Source: a virus (Duplodnaviria > Heunggongvirae > Uroviricota > Caudoviricetes). Taken from it: 19,480 nt of DNA. The first letter of the stretch is position 1. Each line of letters starts with the position of its first letter. The position numbers and the translations under genes are program-made. Of the stretch, positions 10,611 through 11,425 are shown piece by piece. Below the pieces are notes generated by a model that saw only the letters and a list, made by a program, of their open reading frames with translations, was not told where the DNA came from and made no database searches. The stretch lies in IMG/VR virus record IMGVR_UViG_2648501130_000004; one strand, written 5' to 3'.

Positions 10611-11099
10611 ATGAGTCTTTTGAATGAAGTTCAGAAATTCATTGAAGCCCATCCGGGGTGTACTTCCGGAGACATTGCGGATGCTTTTGCAGGTTACTCA
10701 CGGCAGCGCGTTCTGCAGTCAGCAAGCAAGTTACGTCAGAGTGGGCGTGTGGCTCACCGTTGTGAAGGAGATACACGCAGACATTTCCCACGCCTGACTG
10801 AGAGAGCGCAGGAGCCGGAACCACAACCAGTTCGTGAAACCAGACCTGTGCGCAATTTCTATGTCGGCACTAACGATCCCCGGGTGATTTTGTGCCTGAC
10901 CCGCCAGGCGGAAGAACTGGAGTCCAGGGGCTTATACCGTCGTGCTGCAACGGTGTGGATGGCGGCATTCCGTGAAAGCTACTCCCAGCCAGAACGAAAC
11001 AATTTTCTGGCGCGTCGTGAACGGTGTTTACGGAAAAGCAGTAAGCGGGCTGCATCAGGTGAAGAGTGGTATCTGTCAGGGAATTACGTGGGGGCTTAA
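10611..11099 (+). CDS. PerC-like transcriptional regulator with N-terminal winged-helix region
   Basis: C-terminal LTRQAEELESRGLYRRAATVWMAAFRE resembles the PerC family from memory; the ORF track's first codon 10605 is GTG, the more likely start is ATG 10611. Confidence 0.6.
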   Translation: MSLLNEVQKFIEAHPGCTSGDIADAFAGYSRQRVLQSASKLRQSGRVAHRCEGDTRRHFPRLTERAQEPEPQPVRETRPVRNFYVGTNDPRVILCLTRQAEELESRGLYRRAATVWMAAFRESYSQPERNNFLARRERCLRKSSKRAASGEEWYLSGNYVGA

Positions 11100-11425
11100 T
11101 GACGACGTTAACTCAATGCCAGCAGCAGGTGCTGGATATGCTGATTTCTTACCAGAAAGAACGTGGCTTCCCGCCAACCAATCAGGAGGTGGCAACCATG
11201 CTGGGATACCGTTCGGTGAATGCAGCGGTGGAGCATCTTCGCGCACTGGAGAAAAAAGGCGTCATCACGATAAAGCGTGGCGTGGCCCGGGGGATAACGC
11301 TTCATACCGCGGTGAAGGACGACGACAGCGAGGCTGTCGGGATTATCCGCTCACTGCTTGCCGGTGAGGAAAACGCAAGGCTGCGTGCAACCCACTGGCT
11401 ACATGAGAGAGGCCTGAAAGTATGA
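11099..11425 (+). CDS. LexA N-terminal DNA-binding-domain homologue lacking the peptidase domain
   Basis: LTQCQQQVLDMLISYQKERGFPPTNQEVATMLGYRSVNAAVEHLRALEKKGVITIKRGVARGITL aligns to E. coli LexA residues about 4-68 (LTARQQEVFDLI...[36 protein letters not shown]...); start ATG overlaps the upstream TAA. Confidence 0.75.
   Translation: MTTLTQCQQQVLDMLISYQKERGFPPTNQEVATMLGYRSVNAAVEHLRALEKKGVITIKRGVARGITLHTAVKDDDSEAVGIIRSLLAGEENARLRATHWLHERGLKV

Follow-up and report, generated by a model that had tools for sequence, protein, structure and literature searches.

What might a phage gain from a LexA DNA-binding domain that carries no protease? The question is raised by a 19,480-nucleotide (nt) stretch of viral DNA (Caudoviricetes; IMG/VR record IMGVR_UViG_2648501130_000004), hereafter the window, in which two small genes on the + strand at 10611-11425 encode a PerC-like protein and a protein of 108 amino acids (aa) that resembles the N-terminal domain of LexA. 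In the present study, we named the product of the second open reading frame (ORF; 11099-11425) LexN, and its domains, fold, relatives, genomic surroundings and possible targets were analyzed computationally. LexN is best explained as a phage-owned DNA-binding half of a gammaproteobacterial LexA, in which the S24 half has been replaced by a conserved helical hairpin. The family is already catalogued (PHROG 362) and annotated, and it is not a new kind of system; in the searchable literature we found annotations only and no functional study of the enterobacterial LexN family.

Domain composition and fold

LexN (11099-11425, + strand; RefSeq WP_000210170.1, 'LexA family transcriptional regulator') matches the Pfam family LexA_DNA_bind (PF01726) over the whole 65-position model, with 69 bits against 23.7 and an E-value of 2.9e-19. 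The lexA equivalog TIGR00498 is covered only at positions 1-91 of 203 and is scored at 70.8, below its cut-off of 110.95. The phage profile phrog_362 ('transcriptional repressor') is matched from end to end, residues 1-108 of LexN with positions 1-106 of 106 (E 1.1e-59). No match to Peptidase_S24 was obtained for LexN in the profile search, and the protein ends at residue 108. A phmmer search of PDB retrieved the N-terminal domain of E. coli LexA (1lea, E 7e-16), and residues 1-69 make up a complete LexA winged helix with 50% identity to the E. coli protein.

An AlphaFold model of LexN was built from an alignment of 36 family sequences and reached a predicted local distance difference test (pLDDT) of 84. 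When it was compared by Foldseek with LexA of the LexA-DNA complex 3jso, the root-mean-square deviation was 1.0 Å over 68 residues at 50% identity. In the model the winged helix-turn-helix (HTH) occupies residues 1-69 (11099-11305, + strand; pLDDT about 90), with helices at 6-22, 28-35 and 40-52 and wing strands at 56-58 and 66-68. The original prediction of a LexA winged helix that ends before the S24 domain was thus correct, as the Pfam match, the partial TIGR00498 match, 1lea and 3jso all indicate. Since the S24 domain is missing, RecA-stimulated self-cleavage of LexN is not possible. The LexN stretch LLAGEE aligns with the self-cleavage stretch VAAGEP of LexA (Ala84-Gly85), 81 of the 120 family members keep its glycine, and the model predicts a helix at this place. 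Here and below, family counts refer to the 120 members in which the tail is covered; identity to the query is less than 70% for 74 of these.

A conserved C-terminal hairpin

It had been supposed that the protein simply stops after its DNA-binding domain, which did not hold: a conserved, family-specific helical hairpin follows at residues 75-103 (11321-11407, + strand). In the AlphaFold model it consists of helices 75-88 and 93-103 with a pLDDT of 86-88, and it is joined to the winged helix by a linker at residues 69-74 which is predicted to be flexible, with a pLDDT below 50 at residues 71-73. The tail equals the DNA-binding helix in its degree of conservation. A97 is found in all 120 members, L101 and an aromatic residue ([WFY]) at position 100 in 118 each, A93 in 111, A79 in 105, R84 in 100, R94 in 93 and R96 in 92, and positions 82 and 83 are held by leucine or isoleucine.

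The conserved hydrophobic residues form two stripes, 79/82/83/86/87 and 93/97/100/101, at the spacing of helix-helix packing. From this spacing we infer a module for dimerization or for binding of a partner, and one of these is probably what the modelled hairpin serves. In addition, conserved arginines (R84, R94, R96 and R104) lie on the surface of the tail. No PDB entry matched by Foldseek covers the LexN tail. Homology of the tail to the PerC domain of the neighboring gene product was tried and rejected, as hhalign gave a probability of 0.2%.

The recognition surface

The recognition helix of LexN, residues 39-52 (SVNAAVEHLRALEK; 11213-11254, + strand), was placed by HMMER alignment to 1lea. 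The LexA residues that contact DNA, drawn here from secondary citations, are S39, N41, A42, E44 and E45 (PMC3091678, PMC13416735). LexN keeps S39, N41, A42, E45 and also H46 of the E. coli protein, and carries the changes P40V and E44V; the wing residues R64-G65-I66 of LexA are kept as well. Within the family, S39 is present in 120/120 members, N41 in 118/120 and A42 in 104/120, and position 45 is glutamate in 70 and aspartate in 34. The near-invariance of S39, N41 and A42 argues that the LexA-like core of base reading may well have been retained.

Family, distribution and selection

The profile search found at least 120 members of 105-135 aa, with PF01726 as their only domain. Their hosts are E. 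coli, Salmonella, Citrobacter, Cronobacter, Klebsiella, Enterobacter, Atlantibacter, Kosakonia and Hafnia, and both the length and the tail motif stay constant over genera at 40-60% identity. LexN is present in 61 phage records, including SfV, SfII, SfIV, mEp460, cdtI and Stx2a/Stx2c phages, under the labels 'LexA-like protein' or 'transcriptional repressor', and the PerC-like gene and LexN are found together in 2675 of 5426 complete E. coli genomes as well as in phages SfV, mEp460 and Stx2a/2c.

For the comparison of close relatives, we used a set of 80 viral loci with LexN at least 98% identical. Among the unique alleles of such loci, LexN shows 341 synonymous and 33 non-synonymous differences, and the ratio of non-synonymous to synonymous polymorphism (pN/pS) is 0.03, compared with 0.09 for rusA. 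Purifying selection on LexN is very strong.

Short proteins in which LexA_DNA_bind is the only domain are found repeatedly in many unrelated phages. A further arrangement was observed in proteins P0132, P0133, P0149, P0152, P0153, P0155, P0156 and P0159, where two LexA_DNA_bind domains stand in tandem on one chain with no S24 domain. Such proteins may act as single-chain pseudo-dimers. Neither LexN nor the PerC-like protein gave a meaningful match among the PADLOC defence models.

Genomic position

The window comes from a lambdoid prophage or phage. Over positions 3364-15508 it shares 99.1% identity with phage Ayreon, and after 15508 it has no counterpart to the Ayreon sequence; the PerC-like gene and LexN together are 100% identical to E. 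coli prophages beside tRNA-Thr/proA. The gene order is int ... cI, cro, cII-like ymfL, an RNA/ash region, a replication gene, the PerC-like gene, LexN, rusA, a KilA-N gene, DUF968 and Q. The cI gene (7171-7845, - strand) encodes an S24 repressor of the normal type. On the + strand, the replication-initiation gene (9790-10608; HTH_36 and DnaD-like by profile matches) has its TGA stop 2 nt before the ATG of the PerC-like gene. The Holliday-junction resolvase gene rusA (11422-11811, +; Pfam RusA) starts within the LexN stop (ATGA, 11422-11425). It is followed on the same strand by the genes for the KilA-N protein (11831-12640) and DUF968 (12648-13637), which are both part of a conserved block, and by the Q antiterminator gene (13651-14403), which ends the region. 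The pair is therefore situated between the replication gene and Q, and the nin-like region to which it had been assigned was confirmed.

From 8728 to 11811, consecutive ORFs overlap or lie no more than 2 nt apart. No sigma-70-like promoter was seen between the replication gene and rusA or just upstream of the PerC-LexN pair, and no terminator-like site was seen on the + strand from the replication gene to rusA. Hence, both genes look delayed-early, as if made only once cI has been inactivated, and we infer that they belong to the early-right (pR) lytic operon. A weak sigma-70-like site further on, TTAAGA-16-AATAAT with 9 of 12 matches at 11812-11839 (+ strand), spans the 19-bp gap after rusA and the first KilA-N codons and corresponds to chance expectation.

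The Rfam scan found no RNA family in 10611-11425. Upstream in the same operon, it placed two RNAs above the gathering score on the + strand, the Hfq-binding isrK RNA at 9088-9164 (58.9 bits) and the C4 antisense RNA at 9189-9276 (80.7 bits). Both lie within a 278-aa ORF (8728-9564), just before the part that the annotation pipeline PGAP names 'ash family protein'; this ORF is probably not one real gene. The stretch looks like a small-RNA module of the P1 immI type or the Gifsy-1 isrK type.

Gene order in relatives

The genes for PerC, RusA, KilA-N and DUF968 are each present in 75-79 of the 80 loci, in a PerC-LexN-RusA-KilA-N-DUF968 block which in most loci has no intergenic gap above 23 bp. 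The LexN-rusA junction is constant, with a gap of 0-3 nt in 77/77 loci. The modules around the block are exchanged: the cI type of the window is found in 30/80 loci and its Q type in 30/80, and about half of the loci have a replication module of another type. That the block assorts with differing immunity, replication and Q modules fits a target which belongs to no single phage module.

In Cronobacter, Salmonella and Atlantibacter, where LexN is 46-57% identical, the order is replication gene, PerC, one or more methyltransferases, LexN, RusA, a KilA-N/ANT/Rha gene, DUF968 and Q. In Klebsiella, the LexN homologue follows dinI and a hypothetical gene and precedes a small ORF and DUF968, and there is no PerC gene. 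This operon belongs to a prophage remnant (locus L003, 5385-6393), its LexN homologue has 130 aa, and the dinI promoter carries a consensus SOS box, TACTGTTTATTTATACAGTA, which overlaps the -10 element. Read in this way, the Klebsiella LexA look-alike would itself be under the control of host LexA, beside the RecA modulator DinI.

The PerC-like gene and its junction with LexN

The PerC-family (YfdN-type) gene of the window (10611-11099, + strand) encodes 162 aa, or 164 aa from the GTG at 10605 that PGAP prefers as the start. The Pfam PerC family (PF06069) is matched at residues 98-149 (10902-11057, + strand) with 35.1 bits against a gathering score of 22.6 (E 1.7e-8). The protein is a full-length member of phrog_1324 ('transcriptional activator', E 1.2e-77) and is labelled 'yfdN: PerC family transcriptional regulator' by RefSeq. 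Residues 6-68 match phrog_1687 MarR (E 8e-5), NCBIfam BilQ is matched at E 0.003, and the first 70 residues or so could form a putative MarR-type winged helix, to which the resemblance is weak. No relative of the PerC-like protein was found among solved structures. The pN/pS of its gene over the same 80 loci is 0.14.

PerC of enteropathogenic E. coli, PchA-C of enterohemorrhagic E. coli and YfdN of the K-12 prophage CPS-53 share the PerC domain with the window protein; the yfdN gene has been named as the K-12 PerC homologue (PMC5931665). The PerC and Pch proteins are about 90-105 aa long, and the 162-aa protein of the window adds the N-terminal domain of about 70 residues. It had been stated that PerC-family proteins activate virulence or regulatory genes of the host. 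Activation of virulence genes is documented for PerC and for PchA-C, which clearly activate ler, but PchD and PchE barely do so (PMC5931665), and the window protein is of the YfdN type with an extra N-terminal domain. We propose that the PerC-like protein is a separate regulator which merely shares an operon with LexN.

At the junction (11090-11101, + strand), direct reading of the sequence gives a GGGGG Shine-Dalgarno at 11090-11094 and the overlap TAATG at 11097-11101, in which the PerC stop TAA (11097-11099) shares a base with the LexN ATG (11099-11101). The overlap is therefore as first described, but the translationally coupled unit that was read from it is not a fixed pair. Of 76 related loci, 24 have the two genes directly side by side and 52 have between them a stretch of about 650 bp, in annotated relatives the gene of a Dam methyltransferase. 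The idea of an obligatory pair coupled in translation was rejected on this ground. With the insertion in 52/76 loci and with Klebsiella lacking a PerC gene, the two are better regarded as neighbors in a conserved block. The junction is a site at which orphan DNA methyltransferase genes (Dam PF05869, MethyltransfD12 and C5 DNA_methylase) are inserted, and it is filled in these 52 close relatives and in the homologous regions of Cronobacter, Salmonella and Atlantibacter.

SOS boxes in the window and in related loci

Candidate sites were scored with a matrix built from 16 E. coli SOS boxes, which themselves score 12.9-26.3, and a score of at least 18 was taken as a strong canonical box. In 80 LexN-bearing loci (1335 kb), there were 58 strong boxes in 44 loci, representing 8 distinct sequences, compared with 3 strong boxes in 3 loci among 80 lambda-NinB-type loci without LexN (1233 kb). 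Phages lambda, HK97 and P22 have no strong box.

The commonest boxes stand at three kinds of gene position: within the linker of cI, between rusA and the KilA-N gene, and over the 5' end of a methylase gene. The cI-linker box (TACTGTATATAAAAACAGTA or TACTGTATGTAAAAACAGTA) lies in cI-like S24 genes and encodes T-V-[Y/C]-K-N-S between the HTH and the S24 domain. It is found in 23/80 LexN-bearing loci and 0/80 NinB-type loci, for instance in a Cronobacter prophage (L006, 2190-2209) and an E. coli viral contig (L010, 5546-5565), and is kept across genera in which the flanking residues differ. Such a box could act as an intragenic LexA roadblock or as an internal promoter. Downstream of Q, an N6/N4 DNA methylase gene contains the methylase box, TACTGTAAAAATAAACAGTG, with a score of 22, over its codons 3-9 (Ayreon, L001, 17296-17315). 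This box occurs in 26-29 related loci and is the sole strong box of the Ayreon genome, in a methylase module which is absent from the window.

The rusA/KilA-N spacer box is CACTGTTCATAAATACAGTA. In five relatives (L052, 10765-10784; L027, L065, L069 and L073), a spacer of 161-184 bp with the box TACTGTATTTATGAACAGTG precedes a 70%-identical KilA-N variant. Box and variant together have the arrangement that a LexA-controlled antirepressor-like gene would have. The rusA/KilA-N gap of the window has 19 bp and no SOS box.

A single perfect CTGT-N8-ACAG (CTGTAAGTAACCACAG) is present in the window, at 8831-8846, in the interval from ymfL to the DUF4222/isrK region. The site is conserved in 37 related loci, probably through conservation of the surrounding sequence, and as a site for LexA or LexN it was set aside with its score of 7.0. 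In phage lambda, TACTGGATCTATCAACAGGA between cII and O (L094, 38660-38679) scores 15.3, which is within the range of real boxes.

Discussion

We suggest that LexN is a dimeric, RecA-insensitive stand-in for LexA at LexA-type boxes, a reading that is plausible and is held here tentatively. According to it, LexN would be transcribed as part of the early-right operon, like rusA, the PerC-like gene and the replication genes, and would appear only after infection or after inactivation of the prophage's own cI. It would bind DNA as a dimer held by the hairpin, and its targets would be CTG-containing palindromes of the LexA type, that is, host SOS boxes and, in many relatives, boxes within phage genes. 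As RecA* could not trigger its cleavage, LexA-controlled promoters would be repressed again while host LexA is being destroyed. The promoters affected would be those of host SOS functions, of LexA-controlled antirepressors and of co-resident SOS-inducible prophages. There is a precedent in the residual binding of cleaved repressors, since LexA and CI, once cleaved, have N-terminal domains that can still bind DNA and have to be removed by ClpXP for full induction (PMC10584840). We also count in its favor that S39, N41 and A42 are retained, that no private operator is evident, that the block is independent of the other phage modules and that LexN is associated with SOS boxes.

The wider consequence would be that about half of the sequenced E. 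coli strains, Stx2a and Stx2c lysogens among them, carry a LexN which re-occupies SOS boxes on the host chromosome, in co-resident prophages and in phage genes (the cI linker, an antirepressor-like promoter and the start of a methylase gene) during induction, that it cuts the SOS response short and silences competitors, and that the phage lineage has co-evolved with it by embedding such boxes. We regard this extension as possible, if rather doubtful. In itself, it is possible that LexN acts, once induction has occurred, on SOS genes of the host or on prophages residing in the same cell.

Several findings weigh against LexA-type boxes as the target. Of the five contact residues of LexA, on whose conservation the occupation of SOS boxes had been made to depend, LexN keeps four, S39, N41, A42 and E45, and has valine in place of E44. 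Both R28 and E44 of LexA are kept in 0/120 family members, position 44 being V, A, T, N, L or F instead, although full-length S24-bearing LexAs among the matches have R28 in 11/12 and E44 in 10/12 in what is a small sample. Because the two residues are lost family-wide, the same SOS-box specificity as that of LexA cannot be assumed. Positions 44-46 moreover vary by subfamily (V-E-H, T-D-M, N-D-H and L-L-H), which is not expected of a fixed host target. No site of the window reaches a score of 12, the best being 10.4, below every one of the 16 boxes from which the matrix was built. The loci that carry SOS boxes are not independent, and the enrichment is therefore an association between lineages and no proof of a functional link. 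In LexA the spacing of the half-sites is set by the C-terminal dimer, and another dimerization element may impose another spacing. Finally, gp6 of phage GIL01, the only characterized phage protein of this kind that we found, binds a palindrome of its own and activates transcription.

The last point leads to an alternative of some, though limited, probability: LexN may be a phage-specific regulator which was recruited from LexA and re-tuned, like gp6, to an operator of its own outside the SOS system, with the tail serving for dimerization or for contact with RNA polymerase. GIL01 gp6 binds GaCACAnnTGTGaC and activates the late promoter P3, and the loss of R28 and E44 in every member together with a recognition helix that varies by subfamily would suit such re-tuning. 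The arginines R84, R94, R96 and R104 suggest an interaction surface on the tail beyond packing, and the recurrence of short LexA_DNA_bind-only proteins in unrelated phages points the same way. Against it, no candidate operator was found. In a search of six diverse loci for 4-mer inverted repeats at spacings of 4-12, only codon-bias words (CAGC/GCTG, CTGG/CCAG and GCGC) were obtained, and the counts of CTG-Nx-CAG were likewise inflated by codon bias, with nothing pointing to an operator. The conserved block is almost without intergenic DNA and assorts freely with the other modules. Furthermore, S39, N41 and A42 are near-invariant, and LexN has no pairwise similarity to gp6, so that the analogy is one of architecture only.

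If LexN were instead made in the lysogen and sat on SOS boxes or phage operators, it would lower the spontaneous or SOS-dependent induction of its own prophage. The original prediction had offered such damping, and a LexA-like binder that escapes cleavage would in principle have such an effect on SOS; the high conservation of LexN agrees with it, and so do the Klebsiella remnants, in which the gene has an SOS-box promoter and not pR. In the window, however, the gene lies within packed ORFs downstream of cro, the cII-like gene and the replication gene, with no promoter seen just upstream and no + strand terminator from the replication gene to rusA, and would be silent while cI is active. In addition, cI is a normal S24 repressor, and the window lacks an SOS box for action in cis. 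With this lytic-operon position and expression after cI inactivation, damping of the own prophage is unlikely.

About equally improbable is that LexN is not a transcription factor at all and serves as a DNA-binding or adaptor subunit for the RusA resolvase, for methyltransferases or for replication. The invariant LexN-rusA overlap (77/77 loci), the methyltransferase genes repeatedly inserted directly upstream of LexN and the weak winged-helix matches to DnaD_N and O-like replication proteins speak for such a role. On the other side, the Klebsiella homologues have no adjoining rusA or methyltransferase, the matches to replication proteins are not significant, and the base-reading S39, N41 and A42 are retained, which points to sequence-specific recognition. 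That LexN is a decaying, functionless remnant of a full-length LexA-like or cI-like repressor is very improbable: it stops where S24 would begin, and in the alignment its residues IIRSLLAGE (82-90) correspond to LVGRVAAGE of the linker and cleavage region of LexA, but length and tail motif are constant across genera, the gene is carried by functional phages such as Ayreon, SfV, mEp460 and Stx2 phages, and a pseudogene was rejected with the pN/pS of 0.03.

Should LexN bind SOS boxes, a very common prophage gene would modulate the DNA-damage response of E. coli from outside the RecA/LexA circuit. This would bear on prophage cross-induction and competition, on Shiga-toxin release after antibiotics, on SOS mutagenesis and on persistence. 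Should it have its own operator, it would be the second independent case, after GIL01 gp6, of a LexA DNA-binding domain used as a private phage regulator.

Comparison with known systems

The closest counterpart of LexN is the N-terminal domain of E. coli LexA (1lea, 3jso), including the cleaved 1-84 fragment, which has the same fold and likewise lacks the RecA-responsive domain. Compared with the whole of E. coli LexA, LexN is without S24, without the Ser119/Lys156 pair and without a functional cleavage site; it adds the hairpin that LexA lacks and is placed in a phage lytic operon. The VAA motif marks the cleaved LexA fragment for ClpXP, and the C-terminus of LexN is not this motif.

Non-inducible (Ind-) LexA mutants, G85D in PDB 1jhf and S119A in PDB 1jhh, are LexA-type binders which RecA* cannot inactivate, and LexN as proposed here would be analogous to them in that respect. 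Such mutants hold the SOS regulon off. They are full-length dimers with native specificity, unlike LexN, which is a putative dimer.

Among phage proteins, gp6 of the Bacillus phage GIL01 is a truncated LexA homologue which activates the late promoter P3 (PMC6182141). Both gp6 and LexN consist essentially of a LexA DNA-binding domain and belong to an early operon, in the case of LexN by gene position. BLASTP gave no alignment between the two at E <= 100. The 66-aa gp6 has no tail and is of Firmicute LexA origin, whereas the 108-aa LexN carries a hairpin of about 30 residues; the helix of gp6 is heavily changed (K38 aligns with N41 of LexA) and reads a non-SOS palindrome, whereas that of LexN is near-native. 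The two proteins arose by independent truncation in different LexA lineages. The conserved hairpin tail and the near-native recognition helix, newly seen here, set the LexN family apart among the phage LexA domains without a protease.

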